A stretch of DNA of 41,798 bases from a virus. Its lineage: Duplodnaviria > Heunggongvirae > Uroviricota > Caudoviricetes. Below the pieces are notes generated by a model. The model was given only the letters and a program-made list of their open reading frames with translations. It did not search any database and had not been told where the DNA came from. The position numbers were made by a program, and so were the translations under genes. The stretch spans positions 1-41,798 of IMG/VR virus record IMGVR_UViG_2563366805_000010, one strand, 5' to 3'. This document shows, piece by piece, positions 3,444-39,819 of the stretch; the stretch's first letter is position 1, and every line of letters starts with the position of its first letter.

Positions 3444-4115
3444 TTACAATTCGGTCATAAATTCGGTGATAGCCACGTCTACGGCGTGGAGGTCGTTGTC
3501 CATTTCCGTCTGGTCCGGGAACAGGTCGGGCGGCGCTTTGGCGGTGTCGTTGTCATCGCCTTTGATGAGAAAAACGTGTTTACCGTCCTTCTTGATGGCG
3601 CGCAGCACGATGGAGAAATAGCCCTCTGGAGTCAGCTTTTCGTTGAGCATCTTCCCGGTGGTCTTCATGCGGATCTTTCCCTCGGTCTCTTCGGTGTGAG
3701 CCAGGAAATAAACGCGGAAGTCGTCCGGCAGCTCGGTGGCCGCCATGATGATTCGCCAGATGTGATCTGCCATTTCGGTGAATTTGGCATAGCCGGTCTG
3801 GTACGCGCGGTTCATGTTCTCGTGCTGCATGACCACCTGGAAATCGTCGATGATCAGGACGCGGCGCGTTTTCGACTGCACCATGCGATAGATGGTGTCC
3901 AGCACCGTTTCCCAGTTATCCGAGCGCAGAACGTTACCGCGCTGTTTGCTTCCGTCTGGCAGCAGCTTGCCGTGAAGTTTCCAGCCCGCAGACTTGAACG
4001 GCAGCATTTTGGGAATGCACTGGAGCAGCATCACATCGTCCGGATTGAAGTTGCGCAGGCTGTAGGACTTGCCCGCGCCAGAGTCACCTAGGATCAGCAC
4101 TGGAGTACCCATCAT
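3444..4115 (-). CDS. Sak4-like RecA-fold recombination ATPase
   Basis: 223 aa; Walker A GDSGAGKS near N-terminus, Walker B VLIIDD; position next to exonuclease and SSB-like genes. Confidence 0.8.
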   Translation of the reverse strand: MMGTPVLILGDSGAGKSYSLRNFNPDDVMLLQCIPKMLPFKSAGWKLHGKLLPDGSKQRGNVLRSDNWETVLDTIYRMVQSKTRRVLIIDDFQVVMQHENMNRAYQTGYAKFTEMADHIWRIIMAATELPDDFRVYFLAHTEETEGKIRMKTTGKMLNEKLTPEGYFSIVLRAIKKDGKHVFLIKGDDNDTAKAPPDLFPDQTEMDNDLHAVDVAITEFMTEL

Positions 4116-4783
4116 TTACCCCCGTTCAGCCAGTGTTCAGCCGTAAACAGCACGTCTTCGTCTTCGCTGTTGGCAACGAGCCAGCGCAGGTAACCCGGTT
4201 CTGTTTTTGCCAGCTCTGCGAACGAGACGCCTTTATGCTTACCGAAGCGGAGCGCATGCAGCAGGGAAGGGTTATTGGAGATGGCGCGCATTTCGCCCAT
4301 CGTCCATTTCGCCAGGCGGCCCATATAGAGCAGCAATTCGGCGGTGACGTAGCAGTCATACAGCGCTCGGTGAGCGTAAAGCCCTTCAGGTACTTCCGGT
4401 TTCAGTCCGAGGCTGTAACGCAGGTACTGGTTGCTGTGGCTCTTGTGATCCGGCAGGAGCGAACGCGCCAGCTTAGCGGTACAGATCCACGGGGCGTTCA
4501 TTGCAGGAAGTTTGGCTTTATCGAACTTCGCGTTGTGGGCGACGTAGGCATCTGCCCCCAGATAGCGGCCAATTACTTCACTGAGCAGCGGCGCGCCTTC
4601 CACCATGTCTTCGGTGATATGGTGAATAGCCATGGCCTCAAAACCGATCGCCACGCCTGGCTTAACGAGGTCGCTCATTGGATTGCAGATCACCCCGTCG
4701 ACGATATCGACGCTGGCAATTTCCACCACGGTTTCCGGACCGCCTTCCAGCCCAGTCGTTTCGGTATCAATGACACGCAGCAT
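4112..4783 (-). CDS. DEDDh 3'-5' exonuclease (DnaQ/ExoX-like)
   Basis: Exo I motif VIDTETTG, Exo II HNAKFD, Exo III HRALYDCYVTAEL; start placed at internal ATG 4783 preceded by AGGGGA SD (track ORF extends to 4852). Confidence 0.8.
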   Translation of the reverse strand: MLRVIDTETTGLEGGPETVVEIASVDIVDGVICNPMSDLVKPGVAIGFEAMAIHHITEDMVEGAPLLSEVIGRYLGADAYVAHNAKFDKAKLPAMNAPWICTAKLARSLLPDHKSHSNQYLRYSLGLKPEVPEGLYAHRALYDCYVTAELLLYMGRLAKWTMGEMRAISNNPSLLHALRFGKHKGVSFAELAKTEPGYLRWLVANSEDEDVLFTAEHWLNGGK

Positions 4784-4934
4784 TGTTAATCCCCTGTGTT
4801 CTGTAATCACAAACTGCATCGAAGTGCGCGAGCTGGTGGGCAATAGCCTCAAGGTCAGCTGGCGATAAGTTGTACATCAGGCACAGAAGCGCGATAAGGT
4901 TCATCGCCTGCTGCTGTTTGGTCGTAGCCTGCAT
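4767..4934 (-). CDS. Small hypothetical protein (55 aa)
   Basis: Below track size cutoff; ATG preceded by AGAGGA; 3' end overlaps the exonuclease start. Confidence 0.3.
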   Translation of the reverse strand: MQATTKQQQAMNLIALLCLMYNLSPADLEAIAHQLAHFDAVCDYRTQGINNAACH

Positions 4935-6673: not shown

Positions 6674-7366
6674 TTATGCGAAGCGCTTGTACTCTATTGA
6701 TTGTCTTAGTAGCACTTTAGCCATTACGTAGAACTGATCTTCGTCTTCTGACTCAACATACCATTTCTCGTAGATAGGGTTGTCTGAGATGACAGCAAGC
6801 CGATCTCTTTGCATCTGAAGTCTTTTGACGTGCAGAGTTTTTCCGAACACAAATACGTAAACGCCATCACCATCAAAATGAGTCACGCCAGTATCAACAA
6901 AAATTTGATCTCCTGGTGAGATGGTTCCATCCATGCTGTCGCCGTTAACAGTGATAACTTTTACATTATCTGCGGGGCGGTTTCCGAAAAGTGCGCGAGC
7001 CTGTTCAGTTGTGTATTCGATTGCTCTTATGGTTTCGATAAAATCACTGGTAACTAGCGAGCCAGGACCGGCGCTGGCCTTAACGTCAAGCACATCCACG
7101 CGGTAAACCTCATTCATAACTGGTTTAATTTGGCATAGCGTGTTTGCTTCGCGAATGCCAGATTCCAACATCTCACCTTGCCCCGTTGAAAGCCATTCAG
7201 GACGCACACCCAGAACAGATGCGATCTCTACTGTTTTTCGTGAGCCGTTCGCACCTTTAAGTAACTTATTTACGCTGGACTGAGCCATGCCTACATCTTT
7301 CGCCAGCCTAGCCTGCGTGTATCCAGCGACGTCCATTGCGTGCCCTAAGCGTTCTGAGAATCCCAT
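6674..7366 (-). CDS. cI: CI-type phage repressor (HTH + S24 LexA-like peptidase domain)
   Basis: 230 aa; N-terminal HTH (TQARLAKDVGMAQSSVNKL); C-terminal autocleavage domain with GDSM serine and KRL lysine; AAGAGG SD; divergent from cro. Confidence 0.9.
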   Translation of the reverse strand: MGFSERLGHAMDVAGYTQARLAKDVGMAQSSVNKLLKGANGSRKTVEIASVLGVRPEWLSTGQGEMLESGIREANTLCQIKPVMNEVYRVDVLDVKASAGPGSLVTSDFIETIRAIEYTTEQARALFGNRPADNVKVITVNGDSMDGTISPGDQIFVDTGVTHFDGDGVYVFVFGKTLHVKRLQMQRDRLAVISDNPIYEKWYVESEDEDQFYVMAKVLLRQSIEYKRFA

Positions 7367-14071: not shown

Positions 14072-14170
14072 ATGGCGCAGCACCACCAGCTTAAACACAT
14101 TCGCCTGACGTTATCCGACGTCAGCGATTTGTCGTATCTGTCGCTTAACCTCTTCGGGGGTGACGCGTGA
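14072..14170 (+). CDS. Small leader ORF (32 aa) upstream of ninB
   Basis: GGAG SD; stop overlaps the ninB GTG start (GTGA); may be regulatory. Confidence 0.2.
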   Translation: MAQHHQLKHIRLTLSDVSDLSYLSLNLFGGDA

Positions 14171-14619
14171 GCCAACAATTCCACCTCGTTAACGAAAGCG
14201 TTAAGCAGAACGCTATCAACTACATTCGTCAGTTGCCAGTCGACAGTAAGCGCCCGCTGATACTCGACGTCAAAGAGTCGACGCGCACCGCTATTCAAAA
14301 TCGCAAGATGTGGCCGCTACTGAAAGATCTTTCCGACCAGGTTCTCTGGTTCGGCAATAAATACGATTCCGACGACTGGAAAGACCTCATCACCGCGCTG
14401 GTGGCGAAGACCAAAAAGCAGGAACAGCGAATGGCCCCCGGGCTTGATGGCGGCGTCGTGATGTTCGGCCAGCGCACCAGCAAAATGACCATTCCCCAGA
14501 TGGTAGAGGTCATCGAGGCGATTTACTGGTTCGGCACCCAGCAGGGCGTCACATTCAGCGAACAATCCCGCAATGAAATCGAGTGGGCAAAGCGCTGGGG
14601 GAACAGCAATGCGAAATAA
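14167..14619 (+). CDS. ninB: NinB (Orf) recombination mediator
   Basis: Matches lambda NinB pattern: QNRKMWPLL, GQRTSKM, EWAKRWG. Confidence 0.8.
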   Translation: MSQQFHLVNESVKQNAINYIRQLPVDSKRPLILDVKESTRTAIQNRKMWPLLKDLSDQVLWFGNKYDSDDWKDLITALVAKTKKQEQRMAPGLDGGVVMFGQRTSKMTIPQMVEVIEAIYWFGTQQGVTFSEQSRNEIEWAKRWGNSNAK

Positions 14620-14908
14620 CCCCAGTCAGAAAACCTACCGCAGCAAAAAATGGCTCGCCGCTGTCGGGCAGATCGAGCAGTGCGTGTTATGCGGTTCGTG
14701 GGGGACACAGGTAGCGCATCGCAATGAAGGCAAAGGCATGGGCCTGAAAGCCGATGATTGCGCCACGGCGGCGATCTGCGTTTGCTGCCACGACAGCATC
14801 GACAACGGCAGCAAGCTATCGCGAGACGAACGCCGCCAGCTGATGGACCGCGCTATCGTTCTGACCGTTATCCAGATAGCCCGCCTTGGGCTGGTGGTGC
14901 CAGCATGA
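14609..14908 (+). CDS. Cys-rich nin-region protein (DUF1364-like, zinc-binding)
   Basis: CVLCGSWG...CVCCHD; start overlaps the ninB stop. Confidence 0.5.
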   Translation: MRNNPSQKTYRSKKWLAAVGQIEQCVLCGSWGTQVAHRNEGKGMGLKADDCATAAICVCCHDSIDNGSKLSRDERRQLMDRAIVLTVIQIARLGLVVPA

Positions 14909-15264
14909 AAATTTACGACATCACGCCGATCGGCAAGCCCCGTATGACCCGCGCCGACAAATGGAAAACACGGCCTGCGGTCATGCGTTACCGCGCATTC
15001 TGCGATGAAGCACGTCTGCGCAAAATCAATCTCCCTGAGTCCGGCGCGCATATCACCTTCGTTATGCCAATGCCTCCGAGCTGGAGCAAAAAGAAGCGTG
15101 AACAGCTCAACGGCAAGCCGCACCAGTCAAAACCAGACTGCGACAACATGCTTAAAGCACTGATGGATGCCCTGTTTGATGATGATTCCAGTGTCTGGGA
15201 TTGTCGCATTACAAAGCTATGGGGCGAGAAAGGCCAGATCATCATTCGGGAGAACGGACAATGA
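14905..15264 (+). CDS. rusA: RusA-family Holliday junction resolvase
   Basis: 119 aa; KPDCDNMLKALMDALFDD catalytic acidic cluster; ATGA coupling; nin-region position. Confidence 0.8.
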   Translation: MKIYDITPIGKPRMTRADKWKTRPAVMRYRAFCDEARLRKINLPESGAHITFVMPMPPSWSKKKREQLNGKPHQSKPDCDNMLKALMDALFDDDSSVWDCRITKLWGEKGQIIIRENGQ

Positions 15265-15944
15265 CACGCACCGATATTAACAATTACCAGAAAGCGTCTG
15301 TTGAGCGTACCAACCCGCAAAACGCCTGGGTGACGCTGGCAGCAGCACCACGCAGATCTTACCTGGGGAAATACCGCCGACTGACACCATCGCAAAGCCG
15401 TTGGGTTCGTTCGTTGCTGAACAACTGGGGCGGCATGTATGGAGGCAGCGGAATAGAACACCTTTCAGGTGGCGGTGGTATGTGGTCAATGATATTGACC
15501 GGCTGGACTGGCGAACAGCAGGAGCGGATCGCTACCGTACTGTCTGGTCTGCGTAAAATTGGCTATACCGGAGATGCGTTGTTTGAGCAGGCTAAAGCCA
15601 TCATCTGGCCGAAGAAATCACTTTCTGACCTGATCGGCAACGCCGGGGATCAAGAGGAAGCTGCATTCATGGAGGCTATCATCCTGAAGTCCTTCAAGCC
15701 GGGGAATCCCGTGTATGAGATAGGGAAGGACTATTACACCTGGAGGAAAACCATTAATGACATGGCACGGTGGATGCAATATTACTACGCGCCGTTTCTG
15801 ACCGAAAAGCAATGTATTGACCGCGTGCGCTGGTGTATTGAGTTGTTTAATTCTGCTGTCTTCTTCACGTTAAAAGATGAATTTGGCTTCGAAAATGCAA
15901 AAACTTGCGAAAAAGACTTGAAAACGAGTTTTGAAACTGCATAA
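15261..15944 (+). CDS. Putative late antiterminator (Q-like)
   Basis: 227 aa immediately upstream of the predicted late promoter and terminator and the lysis cassette; no similarity to lambda Q, call rests mainly on position. Confidence 0.5.
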   Translation: MTRTDINNYQKASVERTNPQNAWVTLAAAPRRSYLGKYRRLTPSQSRWVRSLLNNWGGMYGGSGIEHLSGGGGMWSMILTGWTGEQQERIATVLSGLRKIGYTGDALFEQAKAIIWPKKSLSDLIGNAGDQEEAAFMEAIILKSFKPGNPVYEIGKDYYTWRKTINDMARWMQYYYAPFLTEKQCIDRVRWCIELFNSAVFFTLKDEFGFENAKTCEKDLKTSFETA

Positions 15945-15946
15945 TT
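15918..15946 (+). promoter_or_regulatory. Candidate late promoter PR'
   Basis: TTGAAA-17 nt-ATAATT overlapping the 3' end of the Q-like gene, about 80 nt upstream of a strong terminator. Confidence 0.35.
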
Positions 15947-16028
15947 CAGATATGCTCGGACGTCAAAGGCGAAAGAGCTTACCCACCAGCGGAGATGCCT
16001 TGCGCGGAGCGGTGTGAACCACATTTAA

Positions 16029-16055
16029 GCCCTTGCAGAAATGCAGGGGCTTTTT
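16029..16055 (+). terminator. Rho-independent terminator (tR'-like)
   Basis: GCCCTTGCA-GAAA-TGCAGGGGC hairpin with GNRA loop followed by TTTTT. Confidence 0.6.
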
Positions 16056-16062
16056 GCATTCA

Positions 16063-16137
16063 GGGTCAGAAGCACAGAGGTTGTGAGATCGGCTGTTAAC
16101 CGATTGGTCGAAGGTTCGAATCCTTCCTGTCCCGCCA
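16063..16137 (+). tRNA. tRNA-Asn (anticodon GTT)-like gene
   Basis: Hand-folded cloverleaf: acceptor GGGTCAG/CTGTCCC (one T-T mismatch), D-stem 3 of 4 pairs with GG in loop, anticodon stem ATCGG/CCGAT with loop CTGTTAA, 5-nt variable loop, T-arm GAAGG-TTCGAAT-CCTTC, discriminator G and encoded CCA. Confidence 0.5.
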
Positions 16138-16187
16138 AATACCTACCAGGACCATAAGAGCAAAAGCTCAACGCACTACCCTCTATT

Positions 16188-16211
16188 GCCCACCGCGCCG
16201 TGGGCTTTTTT
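16188..16211 (+). terminator. Rho-independent terminator
   Basis: GCCCAC-CGCGCC-GTGGGC hairpin followed by six T. Confidence 0.6.
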
Positions 16212-16319: not shown

Positions 16320-16643
16320 ATGAAAATGCCATACAAACAAGATTTCATCGCTGCGCTACTTGCCGCCAAGGAGCAGGGTATTGGTGCAATGCTGGCTTTT
16401 ATCATGGCGTATCTGCGTGGTCGCTATAACGGCGGCGCGGTAACAAAAACGCTAATTGATGCGCTGATGTGCGCGATGATTGCCTGGTTCGTTCGTGACC
16501 TTCTGGACTTTATCGGCCTGAGCAGCAACCTCGCCTACATAGCCAGCGTCTTTATTGGATACATCGGCACCGATTCGATCGGCAATCTGATTAAAAAACT
16601 TGCAGCAAAAAAGGCGGGAGTTGACGATGCAAACCAGTCCTGA
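16320..16643 (+). CDS. S: Class I holin (lambda S-like)
   Basis: Near-collinear with lambda S (MKMP...AKEQGIG...[10 protein letters not shown]...SNLAYI...[13 protein letters not shown]); MKM dual-start motif; GGAGGTGAGG SD. Confidence 0.9.
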
Positions 16644-17076
16644 CGGAATTGCTCTGATAAAAAAATTTGAAGGTTGTCGGCTGACTGCTTACCCCGACCC
16701 CGGAACGGGAGATGCGCCGTGGACCATCGGCTATGGCTGGACCCATCCGGTTGACGGAAAGCCAGTAAAGCGCGGTATGACTATCGACCAGCAAACCGCT
16801 GACAGGCTTCTGAAAACAGGGCTTGTTGGTTATGAGAATGACGTGCTGAAAGTTGTCAGGGTGAAGCTGACACAAGGCCAGTTCGATGCCCTGGTGTCGT
16901 TCACGTATAACCTCGGTGCGCGGTCATTGTCGACATCGACTCTCCTGCGAAAACTCAACGCCGGAGATTACGCTGGTGCAGCCGATGAGTTCCTGCGCTG
17001 GAATAAAGCTGGTGGGAAGGTGCTGAATGGGCTGACACGTCGGCGGGAGGCAGAGCGAGCTCTGTTCCTGTCATGA
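16627..17076 (+). CDS. Endolysin (GH24 lysozyme, P22 gp19-like)
   Basis: [18 protein letters not shown]...TIGYG and C-terminal [12 protein letters not shown] resemble P22 lysozyme; overlaps holin 3' end. Confidence 0.85.
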
Positions 17077-17540
17077 TTAGCGCACTGGTTAAGCGTTACT
17101 GGCTGCAGTTGCTGGTGCTGGCGTTAATCGGCGCACTGGCTTTCTTCGTGAACCACTACCGCGACAACGCCATCACTTACAGAGACCAGCGCGATAAGGC
17201 CACTGAGAAACTCCTCCTGGCGACCGCCACCATTAAAGACATGCAGACCCGCCAGCGTGATGTCGCTGCACTGGATGCCAAATACACCGGAGAACTGGCT
17301 GATGCGAAAGAAACCATTGAGCGTCTGCATAGCGATGTCATTGCTGGCCGTAAGCGGCTGCAAGTCGCCGCCACCTGTGCAAAGTCAACGACCGGAGCCA
17401 GCAGCATGGGCGATGGAGAAAGCCCAAGACTTACAGCAGATGCTGAACTCAATTATTACCGTCTCCGAAGTGGAATCGACAGGATAACCGCGCAGGTTAA
17501 CTACCTGCAGGAATACATCAGGACGCAATGCCTGAAATAA
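17073..17540 (+). CDS. Rz: Rz i-spanin
   Basis: N-terminal TM helix then [10 protein letters not shown]...[13 protein letters not shown] as in lambda Rz. Confidence 0.8.
17302..17487 (+). CDS. Rz1: Rz1 o-spanin lipoprotein, embedded in Rz in +1 frame
   Basis: [20 protein letters not shown] lipobox followed by Pro-rich segment; entirely inside Rz. Confidence 0.7.
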
Positions 17541-24925: not shown

Positions 24926-25867
24926 ATGATTACTTTTGATCAGGCAACCGTAGATAGCTCCGGTGCCTTTCTCATCGGGGAGCTGGAGCGACTCGACCAG
25001 ACGCTGAACCTGCCTCTGGTGGGGTACACCTGGACCCGAGATATTCAACTGCGTGAAGACGTGTCTATCGCAGATGACATTTCCAGCTGGACGAATACCA
25101 GCTTCGCCGCTGCGGGTACTGGTGCAAATCCGAATGGTAAAAACTGGGTAGGCAAAGACTCCACCGCTATTGCTGGCGTGAACGTGGATATCAGCAAAGA
25201 CGGCAATCCACTGAACCTCTGGGGTATGGAACTGGGCTGGACCGTTGTAGAGCTGGCAGCTGCTCAGCAGGTAGGCCGCCCGATTGATACCCAGAAGTAC
25301 GACGGGATGCAGCTCAAATGGCAGATGGACAACGACGAGCAGGTTTACATCGGTGATGACGCACTCGGCCTGAAAGGTCTGGCAAACCTCGTCGGTGTGA
25401 CGCTGAACAACGCGCCGAAGACCTGGGCGAACTCAACCAACGACGAGATCCTCGATAGCGTGAACAGCATTCTGTCTAATGCCTGGGCAGCATCCGGTTA
25501 TTCCATCGTGCCTTCTGATCTGCGCATTCCGCCAGAGCAGTATTCACTGCTGGCGAGCCGTAAGGTTTCCGAAGCGGGTAACCAGTCACTGCTGACCTAT
25601 CTGGCTGTGAACACTATCGCTTTCCACCAGAACGGCGTTCCGCTTGAAATCAAAGCGGTCAAATGGCTGAAAGGGCGTGGGGTTGGCGGTAAAGACCGTA
25701 TGATCGCCTACACCAACGACAAGAAATACGTGCGCTATCCGCTGGTGCCGTTGCAGAGCGTTCCTGTCCAGTATCGCGGTCTGTATCAGATTGCGACCTA
25801 CTACGGCAAGCTCGGTGCGGTTGAGCCAGTGTACAAAGAAACCCTGTCCTACGTGGACGGTATCTGA
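24926..25867 (+). CDS. Major capsid protein
   Basis: 313 aa, AAGGA SD, central position in head module; assignment by size and context. Confidence 0.6.
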   Translation: MITFDQATVDSSGAFLIGELERLDQTLNLPLVGYTWTRDIQLREDVSIADDISSWTNTSFAAAGTGANPNGKNWVGKDSTAIAGVNVDISKDGNPLNLWGMELGWTVVELAAAQQVGRPIDTQKYDGMQLKWQMDNDEQVYIGDDALGLKGLANLVGVTLNNAPKTWANSTNDEILDSVNSILSNAWAASGYSIVPSDLRIPPEQYSLLASRKVSEAGNQSLLTYLAVNTIAFHQNGVPLEIKAVKWLKGRGVGGKDRMIAYTNDKKYVRYPLVPLQSVPVQYRGLYQIATYYGKLGAVEPVYKETLSYVDGI

Positions 25868-25908
25868 TAACCAGAACGGCCCCGAAAGGGGCCAGAAGGG
25901 AACTGAAA

Positions 25909-26298
25909 ATGGCGAAAGAAAAGCTGGTTACCATCCATGTTCACACCCCGTTTACGCTGACGCTCGGCGATCAGTCAAAAAGGGAGTTTGGCCGGGGACG
26001 GCATAACGTACCGGAAGAGGTCGCGTCGCACTGGTTCACCCAGGCGCACTCCGAGCTTTCCGAAAGCGTGATTAGCGACACCGATGATCTGCAACCCATT
26101 ATCGACAGCCTGCAAGCTCAGATTGCCGACAAAGATAAGCAGATTATCGATAAAGATCAGTTGATTGCCGATCTGCGAGAAGCGCTGCTCAAGCTGCAAG
26201 AGCAGAACGACAGCCTGCAAGCGCAGATTGCTGCCGCCCAGACTGGCGGTAATGGGGCGAAAGATGCCAAAGAATCAAAGCCTGCCAACAGTAAGTGA
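25909..26298 (+). CDS. Hypothetical coiled-coil protein
   Basis: 129 aa; heptad-like [44 protein letters not shown]. Confidence 0.5.
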
Positions 26299-26671
26299 TT
26301 TTCGGCGCGACTTTCCACAGTTTGCTGACCCTGCCAAATATCCCGAAGCACAAATCCAGTTTCGTCTGAATCTGGCTGATGTGCTGCTGAGCGAAAACGT
26401 CACCGGCAAAGAGTTGTTTCCGTACTTTGTCGAGTTGTTCGTGGCTCACTACATGACGCTCTGGGCGGCAGATAGCCGGGCAATGCTCGTCGGCGGCCCG
26501 GGTGGCTCAACCAATGGTGTTCAGTCCTCCAAGTCCGTTGACAAGGTAAGCGTCAGCTATGACACCAGCGCGACGCTAAACCCTGACGCAGGCTTCTGGA
26601 ATAACACCCGATATGGCGCTGAATTTTATCAGTTGATCACGATGTTTGGTGCAGGCGGTCGCCAGCTATGA
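26264..26671 (+). CDS. Hypothetical virion protein (head-tail connector-like)
   Basis: Start chosen at in-frame ATG 26264 (26252 also possible); overlaps previous gene 3' end. Confidence 0.45.
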
Positions 26672-27222
26672 GTTTCAAAAGCGGTGTAACAACGAGGGTG
26701 GATAACGCTAAGGCCATTCTGGATGCGCTCAGGTCGTTAACCAAAAAAGATGTGCTGGTCGGCATCCCTTCGGAAGACAGCGAGCGGGATGATGTTCCGT
26801 TTGGTAATGCGGGCATCGGTTACCTCAACGAATACGGCTCACCAGAGCAGAACATCCCGCCACGACCTCACCTGGTCCCCGGCGTTAAATCGGCAGAAGA
26901 GCAGACGGTGCCGCAGCTCAAAACCGCGGCGCAGGCTGCTCTTGATGGTAATGCTGCGGGAGCAGAACGCGCACTCAACCGTGCCGGAACGCTGGCCGCT
27001 AATGGCGTCAGGCGTTACATGACTATTACCGACTTTACGCCGCTTGCTGACAGCACTGTTGAAGCCCGGGCTCGTCGGGGGCGCAAGGGGGCAACACTGG
27101 AACTTGCCCGGCGTGTTGCTGGCGAATCTCCCGGAACCGATCTGGCGAAACCATTAATTGACACCGGGCAATATCGCAGAGCTATTACCCATGTAGTGAG
27201 GGATAAAGATGCCGACTCTTGA
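26668..27222 (+). CDS. Hypothetical virion protein
   Basis: 184 aa, coupled start and stop in the late operon. Confidence 0.5.
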
Positions 27223-37001: not shown

Positions 37002-38201
37002 ATGGCTTTGAACCTCGACACGCTGGGGCTATCGGCAACGGTAACCGCCCAGGGGATTAGTGCGCCTGATTACCAGACAATCCTAGATACACTGACCAGC
37101 TATTTCAGGCAGATTTACGGTAGTGATGCCTACCTCGAACCAGACAGCAAAGATGGGCAAATGGTCGCGCTGGTGGCTCTTGCGGTGCATGACGCTAACA
37201 ATACCGCTATCGAGATCTACAACTCTTTTTCACCGACGACAGCGCAGGCCGCAGCGCTTAGCAACAATGTGAAAATTAACGGGATCACGCGAAAAGTAGC
37301 GACAAACTCTACTGCTGACCTTCTGTTAACCGGTACGGCAGGCACGACTATCACGAATGGCTCCGCACGGGATAAAAACGGCATTATCTGGAATTTTCCA
37401 GCGAGTGTGGCGATCGGCGTTGATGGTACTGTGCTGGTGACGGCCACATGTGCGAATAGCGGTTCGGTTGCGGCGCTGGCCGGGACTATCACCACCATTA
37501 ACACACCGACTCGCGGATGGGTATCAGTCACCAACCCAGCAGCGGCTACGGTTGGTTCTCCGGCCGAGACAGACGCGGAGCTTCGCATCCGGCAGGGCCA
37601 GAGCGTCGCGCTACCGTCAATCACCCCGTTTGAAGGTGTCGACGGTGCTATTGCTAATGTTAATGGCGTGACACGTCACAAACTGTACGAGAATGACACT
37701 GGCTCGACAGATAGCAACGGGCTGCCGCCTCATTCCATTTCTGCGATTGTTGACGGCGGTGATGTGACAGAAATCGCCCAGACCATCAGGGGGAATAAAG
37801 GGCAGGGAACCGCAACTTACGGTAAAACTTCTGTCACAGTGCCGGATACTTATGGTAATCCTCACGTCATCAGTTTTTCGCGCTCTACCGATGTGCCAAT
37901 TTTCGTAGCCATTACCCTGAAAGTTTTTACCGGCTATACCTCTCAAATCGGCGAGCAGATTAAACAGGCTGTTGCCGATTATATAAATGGCCTGACAATT
38001 GGCGACGACGTTCTGCTGAGCCGTATTTATTCCCCGGCAAACCTCGGCGTTGTGAGCGGCGGGAATGCCCGCTATTACGATATTACCGACCTGCTGATCG
38101 GTAAGTCGTCTGGCAGCGTATCGGCATCAAACATTGATATTGCCTATGATGCTTCTGCGTCCTGTAGCACCGCGAATATCAGTATCACGGTGACCTCATG
38201 A
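37002..38201 (+). CDS. Baseplate J-like protein
   Basis: 399 aa; AETDAELRIRQ and C-terminal beta-rich region typical of the baseplate J family; order as Mu gp47 and e14 jayE. Confidence 0.7.
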   Translation: MALNLDTLGLSATVTAQGISAPDYQTILDTLTSYFRQIYGSDAYLEPDSKDGQMVALVALAVHDANNTAIEIYNSFSPTTAQAAALSNNVKINGITRKVATNSTADLLLTGTAGTTITNGSARDKNGIIWNFPASVAIGVDGTVLVTATCANSGSVAALAGTITTINTPTRGWVSVTNPAAATVGSPAETDAELRIRQGQSVALPSITPFEGVDGAIANVNGVTRHKLYENDTGSTDSNGLPPHSISAIVDGGDVTEIAQTIRGNKGQGTATYGKTSVTVPDTYGNPHVISFSRSTDVPIFVAITLKVFTGYTSQIGEQIKQAVADYINGLTIGDDVLLSRIYSPANLGVVSGGNARYYDITDLLIGKSSGSVSASNIDIAYDASASCSTANISITVTS

Positions 38202-38878
38202 GCAAATACACCGAACTGATCACTAACTACCACGCTACCAAGCCACTCTTTTTTGACCATATAGATCTGAGCACCCGCCCGCTGATTGATGTGTCCAGCA
38301 CTATGTCAGGGCTTATAACAGCCTTCGATATCGATACTGCTGTCGGTGTACAGCTCGACATCCTCGGTCTGTGGATCGGACGCAGTCGCATAGTCAGCCA
38401 GCCAATTAGCGGAGTTTATTTCAGCTGGGACACTGACGGGCTTGGGTATGACCAGGGCATCTGGCAAGGGCCATATGATCCTGATTCTGGCTATACGACG
38501 CTAAGCGATGAGACGTACCGCATCATTCTGAAAGCGAAAATCGCTATCAACAACTGGGACGGTCGGAACGACTCTCTGCCTCCCATCCTTGACGCTGCTA
38601 CCGCAGGCTCAGGCCTGAGGATGCAGATCGTCGACAACCAGGACATGACGATTTCGGTCTGGGTTTTCCCTGAAACTGATATTTCTGATGCGTCTCTCGA
38701 ACTGATCGCCGCTATCAAACAGGGCTATCTCACCGTTAAATCAGCTGGCGTATGGGCCGGTGATGTTGAAACGCCTTCGGTAGAAACACCGTCAGAAGGC
38801 TCTAAATTCTTTGGGTTTGATATGGATAACGAATACATCGGCGGGTTCGATGTTGGAGCATGGGGGACAATACTCTAA
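38198..38878 (+). CDS. Tail protein (Mu gp48 / YmfQ-like, DUF2313)
   Basis: 226 aa directly upstream of tail fibre, as ymfQ in e14. Confidence 0.6.
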   Translation: MSKYTELITNYHATKPLFFDHIDLSTRPLIDVSSTMSGLITAFDIDTAVGVQLDILGLWIGRSRIVSQPISGVYFSWDTDGLGYDQGIWQGPYDPDSGYTTLSDETYRIILKAKIAINNWDGRNDSLPPILDAATAGSGLRMQIVDNQDMTISVWVFPETDISDASLELIAAIKQGYLTVKSAGVWAGDVETPSVETPSEGSKFFGFDMDNEYIGGFDVGAWGTIL

Positions 38879-39819
38879 TGGCAATAAACAACTTTAAACC
38901 TTTCGCGCTTGATCCGAACGCTAACGTCACCTCACAAGCTGACTGGGAAGCACTTCCGGCTCTGCTTTCAGGGTTTACGGCAGGTAAAGCATCCAGCGCA
39001 CAGGTCAACAAAGCTATTCGGCAAGCCAGCTTTATCGCGGCAGCGTTGGCGCAGTACACCGCCAACAAAAGCGGGCTGGATGTGCTTGATGATGGAGACC
39101 TGAACGGGTTTATATCCAAAATGAGGACCGCTTTCGGGAAAGATTTCCAGGCGCTTGATGCCACGCTGTCGGCATTAGCTGGGCTCGCAACAGGTGCAAA
39201 TAAACTCCCATATTTCACTGGAAATGATACAGCAGCGCAGACTGATTTAACTTCTGTTGGCCGTGACATTATTGGGAAAAATACTATTGCTGACATTCTC
39301 ACATACCTTGGTTTAGGAGAAGGCTCAGCATTGCCTGTTGGCGTACCTGTTCCGTGGCCCTCAGCCACTCCGCCAACAGGCTGGCTAAAATGCAACGGAG
39401 CAGCTTTTTCTGCTGAAGAATACCCAGAACTGGCAAAGGCTTACCCGACAAATAAATTGCCTGATTTACGTGGTGAGTTTATTCGTGGCTGGGATGACGG
39501 ACGTGGTATGGATACGGGGAGGGCAATATTATCAGCTCAGGGCGATGCCATACGTAATATCTATGGTGAGTTCAAGACTGTAAACACCGAAAATTATTCA
39601 ATATGGGAATCAGTAGACTCGTTTAAGGGGGCAGTGGTGCCTTTGAATCCCTCAACGAACAATAGTTATTTCTCCTTAATCAGAAGTATGGTGACTGAAA
39701 GAGCAGATGGCGCTGTTTACCCAAAAGTGATTGGCCTTGATGCTTCAAGAATTGTTCCAACTGCAAACGAAAACCGTCCTCGTAACATTGCCTTTAATTA
39801 TATCGTGAGGGCTGCCTGA
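38878..39819 (+). CDS. Tail fibre protein (currently expressed variant)
   Basis: 313 aa; constant N-terminal part, crossover site at codons for ILTYLGLGEG, C-terminal receptor-binding part with PWPSATPPTGW...LPDLRGEFIRGWDDGRG. Confidence 0.8.
   Translation: MAINNFKPFALDPNANVTSQADWEALPALLSGFTAGKASSAQVNKAIRQASFIAAALAQYTANKSGLDVLDDGDLNGFISKMRTAFGKDFQALDATLSALAGLATGANKLPYFTGNDTAAQTDLTSVGRDIIGKNTIADILTYLGLGEGSALPVGVPVPWPSATPPTGWLKCNGAAFSAEEYPELAKAYPTNKLPDLRGEFIRGWDDGRGMDTGRAILSAQGDAIRNIYGEFKTVNTENYSIWESVDSFKGAVVPLNPSTNNSYFSLIRSMVTERADGAVYPKVIGLDASRIVPTANENRPRNIAFNYIVRAA
39296..39321. repeat. Left recombination site of the invertible segment
   Basis: TTCTCACATACC-TT-GGTTTAGGAGAA; its right half matches the reverse complement of the right site 11 of 12. 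Confidence 0.55.

Follow-up and report, generated by a model that had tools for sequence, protein, structure and literature searches.

What does a temperate lambdoid phage gain from a tRNA-Asn gene placed at the head of its late operon, and is such a gene a working tRNA or a decaying one? tRNA-Asn genes in this position have been noted for decades without a known function. The question is raised here by a DNA stretch of 41,798 nucleotides (IMG/VR record IMGVR_UViG_2563366805_000010; in the following, the window), which is 100% identical to Citrobacter phage Omnitron (CP115737), a record without annotation. Between its gene for a Q-like late-gene antiterminator (ending at 15944) and its holin gene (starting at 16320), the window carries a tRNA-Asn(GUU) gene on the late strand (16063-16137, +), the same placement as in phage 21 and Sf6. 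Comparison with related phages and prophages indicates, with good confidence, that the gene is genuine and its phage tRNA most probably functional; it appears to be built into the leader of a Q-dependent late operon.

The tRNA-Asn gene and its lineage

The tRNA-Asn(gtt) is the only tRNA that ARAGORN calls in the window. It matches the Rfam model RF00005 at 55.4 bits (gathering score 29, E = 2e-9), and its minimum-free-energy fold is the cloverleaf. The gene is 75 nt long, has its anticodon GTT at 16095-16097 and ends with an encoded CCA directly preceded by the discriminator G73 (16134). An initial annotation, made from the letters and open reading frames of the window, had allowed for the possibility that tRNA predictors would score this cloverleaf below threshold; both predictors place it well above, and 16063-16137 is, beyond reasonable doubt, a tRNA gene. 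Other Rfam matches in the region (isrJ, isrD, a plastid untranslated region and a small nucleolar RNA) stayed below threshold (E = 0.16-2) and were taken as chance. The E. coli asparaginyl-tRNA synthetase (AsnRS) recognizes its substrate by the anticodon G34-U35-U36 together with the discriminator G73. Both identity elements are present here, and they are invariant across the family of relatives described below.

Three irregular features reported in the initial annotation are all real: a T-T mismatch in the acceptor stem (U4.U69, 16066/16130), a G-A mismatch in the D stem (G10.A25, 16072/16086) and an A at position 8 (16070). The allele is further characterized by U21, an A27-U43 pair and the anticodon arm AUCGG-CUGUUAA-CCGAU. 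Of the near-universal tertiary nucleotides, A14, G18G19 and the T loop GTTCGAAT are kept, while U8 is replaced by A and A21 by U; in the RNAfold prediction A14 pairs with U21. The anticodon loop CUGUUAA, G73 and CCA are likewise intact.

With the E. coli tRNA-Asn, the gene shares the anticodon loop, G73 and CCA, but it differs in all four stems; in the host tRNA, moreover, the acceptor stem is fully paired, and U8/A21, U16, U39 and two CNG motifs are present. A copy of the host gene was therefore rejected, since the verified host tRNA-Asn is unlike it in all four stems. An attP or integration-site remnant was rejected as well, because the integrase gene (1-1194) lies 15 kb away and the tRNA is complete and located in the late leader.

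Relatives of the gene were collected from annotated phages, from E. coli RefSeq genomes and, by a pattern built on the T arm and anticodon loop, from the genomes in IMG/VR and GTDB. The pattern scan also caught many tRNA-Asn genes with the same T arm on chromosomes of unrelated phyla; these carry U8 and were left out of the family. The resulting sequences form one tight family of approximately 113 copies in 14 sequence variants, with 88 identical copies, all in lambdoid phages or prophages of Klebsiella, Enterobacter, Escherichia (including HK639), Citrobacter, Serratia, Cedecea and other hosts. Copies are found in 57 of 5,426 complete E. coli genomes, where PGAP labels them tRNA-Asn; four of these are identical to the Omnitron allele and 53 are related to it.

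Throughout the approximately 113 copies, A8 is invariant and always accompanied by U21 in place of A21. Pair 4:69 is U.U in all copies except one, which has U.C and thus likewise a mismatch, and it is unpaired in all 14 distinct sequences compared, among them the diverged tRNA-Asn of phage 21. The family majority has a normal G10-C25 pair, and G10.A25 is private to the Omnitron allele and its near-identical relatives. The Omnitron allele departs from the majority at four positions: the D loop has A in place of C16, A in place of C25 gives rise to G10.A25, and U27-A43 has become A27-U43, a compensatory swap. Intermediates were found as well (A16 alone; A16 with U27.U43; A16 with A27-U43 and C25). 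Variation within the family is mostly located in loops, leads to wobble pairs or is compensatory. In an alignment of 14 distinct sequences, 13 family variants plus the phage 21 gene with its partly misaligned T stem, pairing holds in 93.5% of pair cells and six pairs are changed on both sides, which none of 500 shuffles reached; slid controls gave 34-59%. Over 92 distinct contexts aligned in a fixed register, mean pairwise identity amounts to 98.8% in the tRNA, 85% in the T-run and spacer before it, 37% in the terminator hairpin upstream and 31-39% in the outer flanks.

These comparisons separate the two parts of the earlier suggestion that the gene may be "diverged or decaying". Divergence is borne out, as the gene belongs to a phage-specific lineage with four stems unlike those of the host. 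Decay is unsupported, because A8 and U4.U69 are fixed in the lineage, pair 27:43 has undergone a compensatory swap and the covariance-model score equals that of the phage 21 tRNA-Asn (55.3 bits); the island of 98.8% identity points the same way. Hence, A8/U21 and U4.U69 are very likely lineage features rather than damage, in a family held by purifying selection, and the Omnitron allele, G10.A25 included, is probably functional. That it might instead be a failing or non-functional copy of a once useful phage tRNA seems improbable to us. Several points do speak for such a relic or weigh against a functional gene: G10.A25 is the sole private, potentially harmful change of this allele, which scores 8.5 bits below the family majority (63.9 bits); A8 takes away the near-universal U8; the cassette is dispensable, with 50 of 84 phages that have the same promoter and leader block carrying no tRNA; and decay is seen nearby, HK639 having a broken tRNA-Gly after its tRNA-Asn. 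Against the relic stand, besides the fixed irregularities, the 27:43 double change and the score, the intact G18G19, T loop, anticodon loop, G73 and CCA, and the unchanged occurrence of the Omnitron allele in Citrobacter, E. coli and Apirhabdus phages or prophages.

The HK639 record (L001:1521-1700 and L001:1938-2143) has only terminators annotated, yet the family-majority tRNA-Asn is present there. Beside it lies the apparent broken tRNA-Gly(UCC), with a mismatched 3' strand of the acceptor stem and no ARAGORN call, and further downstream there is a match to the Rfam small RNA STnc100 (52.6 bits). A few rare variants of the family may be defective or mischarged: one has G3.U70, the alanine identity pair (L039), two have CAA in place of CCA (L042, L045) and one has G1.A72 (L115).

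The exchange of U8/A21 for A8/U21 suggests a compensated rearrangement of the 8-14-21 tertiary contact. Beyond the family, the T5-like Aeromonas phage AhSzq-1 has A8/U21 in two related tRNA-Asn genes, and unrelated phage tRNAs (tRNA-Thr at L058, tRNA-Met at L088) share it. More generally, A8 with a base other than A at position 21, mostly U21, recurs in phage tRNAs for Asn, Thr, Met, Arg and Val (L008, L058, L088, L128, L130). The standard U8-A14-A21 combination was counted in 265 of 428 distinct tRNAs, with position numbers that are unreliable where the D stem is unpaired. A8 without A21 may represent a phage-typical rearranged tertiary contact, which would also remove the 4-thiouridine (s4U8) modification site.

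Two further phage tRNAs help to place the lineage. The phage 21 tRNA-Asn has the same acceptor stem (GGGTCAG/CTGTCCC, including U4.U69), G73 and encoded CCA, but differs in the D arm, anticodon stem, variable loop and T stem and carries U8/A21 where the Omnitron gene has A8/U21. The AhSzq-1 counterparts of the Omnitron gene reach up to 85.7% full-length identity, with A8/U21, an identical T arm, G73 and CCA; they differ in having U.G at 4:69 and in their place, an array of 15 tRNAs in a virulent phage instead of a late leader. This resemblance suggests an exchange of tRNA genes between virulent T5-like and temperate phages. The AhSzq-1 array also contains an ARAGORN-predicted tRNA with the anticodon CTA (L008:2554-2628; labelled tRNA-Pyl), which would be of the amber-suppressor type.

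Candidate promoter, terminators and tRNA cassette of the late leader

The reading of the upstream gene (15261-15944, +) as Q-like in the initial annotation is supported by its 227-aa product, which matches PHROG 753 ("anti-termination protein Q-like") with E = 1e-57, and by its position after NinB (14167-14619, +) and RusA (14905-15264, +). No match was found for this protein in Pfam, NCBIfam or PDB sequence searches; it fits none of PF03589, PF06530 and PF06323, unlike the Q proteins of HK639, GZ7, ST11-VIM1phi8.1, phage 21 and Sf6. Its relatives include gp65 of Klebsiella phage Chronis (71% identity), gp62 of Klebsiella phage Mulock (67%), a Yersinia phage homologue (44%) and a second subfamily, B (27%). 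Some of these homologues are mislabelled: the one in Yersinia phage vB_YenM_29.18 (44%) is called "class II holin", and those in Chronis and Mulock are "hypothetical protein".

The promoter, the terminator with a GNRA loop, the cloverleaf and the second terminator before the holin were all found at or near the positions that the initial annotation had given. The candidate late promoter (pR'-like; 15918-15945, +) consists of a -35 element TTGAAA (15918-15923), a 16-nt spacer and a -10 element CATAAT (15940-15945) that overlaps the stop codon of the Q-like gene. It matches the consensus at 10 of 12 positions. Sites of this quality occur once in 1.4 kb, where shuffles give 1.3 expected; the case for the promoter thus rests on conservation, because its consensus match is no better than that of shuffled sequence. 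Six diverged contexts, and 84 loci in total, show no change in the -10 element or in the 28 nt after it. This predicted initial transcribed block (15951-15978, +; TATGCTCGGACGTCAAAGGCGAAAGAGC) comprises a -10-like hexamer, a candidate sigma-dependent pause element, followed by a small hairpin-coding segment and occurs as exact copies in the 84 loci, which represent 26 different upstream contexts. It is kept behind two Q-like subfamilies, one at least 60% identical to the Omnitron protein, the other approximately 27% identical (E = 6e-20). The block folds as a small two-step hairpin (-7.9 kcal/mol, z = -2.7), and the diverged copies that Klebsiella phage Mulock and Yersinia phages carry show changes only in the loops and from TATGCT to TAAGCT; the annotated pause element of phage 21 is TAAGCTG. 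The promoter spacer covaries with the Q subfamily: one subfamily has a tandem TTGAAA (15918 and 15931), the second the palindrome ATTTNGCGAAAT. The copy of TTGAAA inside the spacer (15931-15936) is a candidate Q-binding element, by analogy with the one annotated in phage 21. Taken together, the promoter consensus, the invariant TATGCT block and the covarying spacer fit the pattern known from lambda and phage 21, the start site and Q binding being predicted only. They make a Q-specific binding element in the spacer and a shared pause or loading element at the TATGCT block candidates in this so far unstudied Q family. In Chronis, a 39-aa "hypothetical protein" coding sequence (gp66; L002:1539-1658), placed between the Q-like gene and the tRNA, spans the late promoter, leader and terminator and is probably spurious.

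Terminator 1 (tR'-like; 16027-16055, +) has an 11-bp stem (16027-16052) with a GAAA tetraloop, followed by five Ts, and a predicted stability of -18.9 kcal/mol (z = -3.8). It ends 7 nt before the tRNA, the spacer GCATTCA (16056-16062, +) forming the 5' leader of the tRNA, which RNase P would remove as the tRNA matures. Terminator 2 (16188-16211, +) has a 6-bp GC-rich stem with a 6-nt loop (16188-16205) and a T6 run (16206-16211), at -11.2 kcal/mol (z = -2.35). Both are recurrent parts of the module. Wherever sufficient upstream sequence was available (110 family loci), the tRNA comes after a GC-rich hairpin. A run of four or more Ts follows this hairpin in 98 loci and mostly stops exactly 7 nt short of the first tRNA nucleotide; in 11 the run is interrupted. 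These loci contain 61 different upstream sequences with many different stems, each internally complementary. Downstream of the tRNA array, a hairpin with T5 was detected in 72 of 90 distinct contexts, compared to 36 of 400 random segments, at a median distance from the last tRNA of 74 nt in the family and at 68 nt in Omnitron. A 48-aa open reading frame (16025-16171, -) runs antisense over terminator 1 and the tRNA; it is almost certainly an artefact of the listing of reading frames.

The content of the module varies around a constant tRNA-Asn. Among the 110 loci, 35 have Asn alone, 30 Asn-Arg(UCU), 29 Asn-Thr(UGU) and seven Asn-Gly(UCC)-Thr(UGU), other arrays being represented by few loci; this gives partner totals of approximately 40 for Thr(UGU), 34 for Arg(UCU) and 12 for Gly(UCC). 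No array with Lys(UUU) was found among them. Homology between Omnitron and a sister contig with Asn-Arg ends 3 nt past the CCA. A minor type of the Thr(UGU) partner is that of phage 21 (98.7% identity), while the major type was not found in phage 21. The module occurs behind four unrelated Q families, namely PF06530, PF03589, PF06323 and the Pfam-less PHROG 753. Mulock has the largest cassette seen, Asn-Phe-Thr-Arg (L278:1098-1417).

This layout is textbook lambdoid biology, related genomes already carry the gene under the annotation tRNA-Asn, and no new category is opened by it. The curated record of phage 21 lists Q21, a pR' with Q-binding and sigma-dependent pause elements, tR', a tRNA-Asn directly after it, a tRNA-Thr(UGU) and the S21 holin; Sf6 has the same order (pR', tR', tRNA-Asn, tRNA-Thr, holin) and is annotated as "similar to phage 21". 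Cassettes of the phage 21 type are further found in L, HK446, BTP1 and P22-like prophages. Compared to phage 21, the Omnitron leader is longer (approximately 105 versus 50 nt), its tRNA stands alone and its Q belongs to a different, Pfam-less family. Shiga toxin (Stx) phages such as 933W have ileZ-argN-argO between pR'/tR' and stx, co-transcribed with the late genes, and these tRNAs read rare codons (AUA, AGA/AGG), which is classically explained by codon supply. The Omnitron tRNA takes the same place after a predicted Q-dependent late promoter and a terminator but reads common Asn codons. Phage L shares the layout (PMC8022706), and the same tRNAs were described in P22-like prophages in a study of epsilon34 (PMC2629481). 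Judged by its sequence, the Omnitron tRNA is a further member of this known arrangement (phage 21, Sf6, L), in a distinct A8/U21 lineage.

By analogy with lambda and phage 21, transcription would start approximately 7 nt past CATAAT, at the invariant TATGCT. Without Q, the polymerase would stop at terminator 1 and release a leader RNA of approximately 105 nt; once modified by Q, it would pass both terminators and the tRNA between them and continue into the lysis and structural genes, and RNase P and 3' processing would free the tRNA, as is general for tRNAs. This scheme of Q-dependent read-through and excision, which draws on the architecture of the locus, is highly plausible. The pR' promoter of lambda is constitutive. 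A more speculative extension is that leakage through terminator 1 from such a promoter could yield some tRNA before Q is made and in lysogens, with terminator 2 keeping the lysis genes silent.

Defence evasion, codon supply and other possible roles

Work from 2025-2026 on P2 Old and PARIS offers a possible purpose, as it showed that host tRNA-Asn is cut by anti-phage Toprim nucleases and that the neighbouring tRNA-Thr acts in counter-defence. The PARIS nuclease AriB cuts the host tRNAs for Lys(UUU), Thr(UGU) and, secondarily, Asn(GUU) after C40 within U36AAUC|N41 and reads U16; with U39 changed to A cleavage is lost, with U16 changed to C it is impaired, and the tRNA-Lys, -Thr and -Asn of T5 jointly neutralize PARIS (PMC12409363). 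P2 Old, the classic anti-lambda system, acts fastest on host tRNA-Thr(UGU) and has Asn(GUU), Lys(UUU) and Val(UAC) as further substrates, requiring CNG motifs at 28-30 and 40-42; the phage 21 tRNA-Thr, with C28U/G42A and a shortened stem, protects against it, and a CNG change alone is insufficient without the shortened stem (PMC12445682). According to a preprint, Old depletes Thr(UGU), Gly(UCC), fMet, Val and Pro tRNAs, and tRNA-Thr of the lambdoid phage HK446 gives a strong rescue (10.64898/2026.07.10.737580). The counter-defence tRNA-Thr(UGU) genes of phage 21 and HK446 come from the same kind of late-leader cassette as the Omnitron tRNA-Asn. The tRNA-Asn of T5 is of a different lineage, and an orthologue of this PARIS-countering gene was rejected for Omnitron because the T5 gene has U8 (along with G39) and different arms.

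Like the counter-defence tRNAs of T5, phage 21 and HK446, the Omnitron tRNA has the anticodon of a host tRNA that is cut and lacks the recognition motifs of the nucleases. Where the host anticodon arm reads GCGGA-CUGUUAA-UCCGU, that of Omnitron has UAAC in place of UAAU at 36-39, U-C-G in place of the CNG motif C-G-G at 28-30 and C-G-A in place of C-C-G at 40-42; position 16 is A instead of U, and pair 28:42 is U-A, as in the phage 21 tRNA-Thr, instead of C-G. UAAU and both CNG motifs are missing in all 14 family variants, and the most variable pair of the family is 27:43 (U-A, A-U, U.U or C.A), whose loss is the second factor of resistance to Old. We tentatively favour, at less than even odds, that the gene serves as a cleavage-resistant spare for the host tRNA-Asn, by which late translation of AAC and AAU would become independent of the host pool.

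A number of findings weigh against this role. For Old as for AriB, Asn is no more than a secondary target, Omnitron supplies neither Thr(UGU) nor Lys(UUU), which the Old and PARIS papers showed to be needed, and the constant member of the cassette is Asn, not Thr. Loss of the motifs is expected by chance for any diverged tRNA (1/16 per register for CNG, 1/4 for U39). The Omnitron anticodon stem is fully paired, so that, unlike in the counter-defence tRNAs, the shortened stem is missing; the commonest Thr(UGU) and Gly(UCC) partners retain their CNG motifs; and no Gam-type RecBCD inhibitor, the trigger of Old, was detected by Pfam in the early-left genes scanned.

Somewhat less probable, and still a serious contender, is plain codon supply, namely extra tRNA-Asn capacity for a burst of Asn-rich, AAC-biased virion proteins, the differences from the host tRNA then being neutral history. 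The chance expectation for motif loss suits it equally. Asn makes up 4.57% of codons downstream of the tRNA compared to 3.85% upstream, 6.4% of the major capsid protein (PF09950, 24926-25867; 15 of 20 codons AAC), 5.6% of the sheath-like protein and 7.2% of the tail fibre. The tRNAs for Arg(UCU), Gly(UCC) and Thr(UGU) that accompany tRNA-Asn in cassettes serve codons that are rare in enterobacteria. For phage L the same case was argued, 24 of its 25 capsid Asn codons being AAC (PMC8022706). Yet the Asn enrichment in Omnitron is small, AAC and AAU are not rare codons of the host, and E. coli has four tRNA-Asn genes; supply also leaves unexplained why Asn is the constant member and why tRNA-Thr(UGU) from the same cassette acts in counter-defence. 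A defence role and codon supply are not mutually exclusive. As a broader and rather doubtful proposal, the terminator and tRNA-Asn module could be a mobile counter-defence cassette of temperate lambdoid phages, often joined by Thr(UGU), Gly(UCC) or Arg(UCU), with A8/U21, U4.U69 and the variable 27:43 as anti-determinants against a nuclease, which may be a still unknown one that has tRNA-Asn as its primary target, and with a terminator bracket that allows a leak before Q and in lysogens without opening the lysis genes.

The same bracket, conserved in 110/110 loci upstream and 72/90 contexts downstream, is not obviously needed by a purely Q-dependent gene. Together with the constitutive pR' of lambda, it leads to the idea that leak-expressed tRNA-Asn benefits the prophage by resisting tRNase toxins in the lysogen, such as colicins, contact-dependent toxins or abortive-infection nucleases of co-resident elements. 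Many prophage-borne anticodon nucleases are indeed known in enterobacteria (PMC13043305). Multiple late-leader terminators also occur without tRNAs, however, with four annotated in HK639, and the idea is entirely inferential; we give it little weight. Least probable is that the cloverleaf mainly punctuates RNA processing, as a signal at which RNase P or RNase E would cut the late mRNA off from the leader and terminator RNA, with decoding being secondary. The tight, fixed 7-nt spacing between terminator and tRNA would suit such a signal, and for phage L it was left unsettled whether the tRNAs are excised from the late mRNA (PMC8022706). A cleavage signal would, however, need neither the strictly conserved anticodon loop, discriminator and CCA nor up to four different tRNAs arrayed at the site, and the same leader without a tRNA is found in half of the phages that have it.

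Two further candidates were set aside. Protection from a nuclease of the phage itself is unsupported, as no tRNase-type PADLOC match was found among ten unassigned proteins of the window, a subset of its genes. For the HepS and Schlafen tRNases, tRNA-Asn is not among the listed targets. As it stands, the census, with approximately 113 copies behind four Q families, a fixed tR' junction, a conserved second terminator, A8/U21 and U4.U69, provides a concrete target, whether as the second half of a counter-defence kit or as a supply tRNA.

Genomic surroundings in Omnitron

On the plus strand, the local gene order is NinB, a YbcO-like protein, RusA, the 227-aa Q-like gene, a non-coding stretch of 375 nt that contains the tRNA, holin, lysozyme and Rz. 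The lysis cassette (16320-17540) forms the first late genes and consists of the holin (PF05106; 16320-16643, +), lysozyme (PF00959; 16627-17076, +) and Rz (PF03245; 17073-17540, +). Overall, Omnitron is a mosaic in which a lambdoid early and regulatory region is joined to late genes of the contractile-tail type (24926-39819). The early side includes the integrase (1-1194), a cI-like repressor (6674-7366), a Dam-type methyltransferase, an ExoX-like DEDDh exonuclease, NinB and RusA, with minus-strand genes at 1672-2544 and 4112-4852, and the late side a DUF3383 sheath-like protein, Baseplate_J and a tail-collar fibre.

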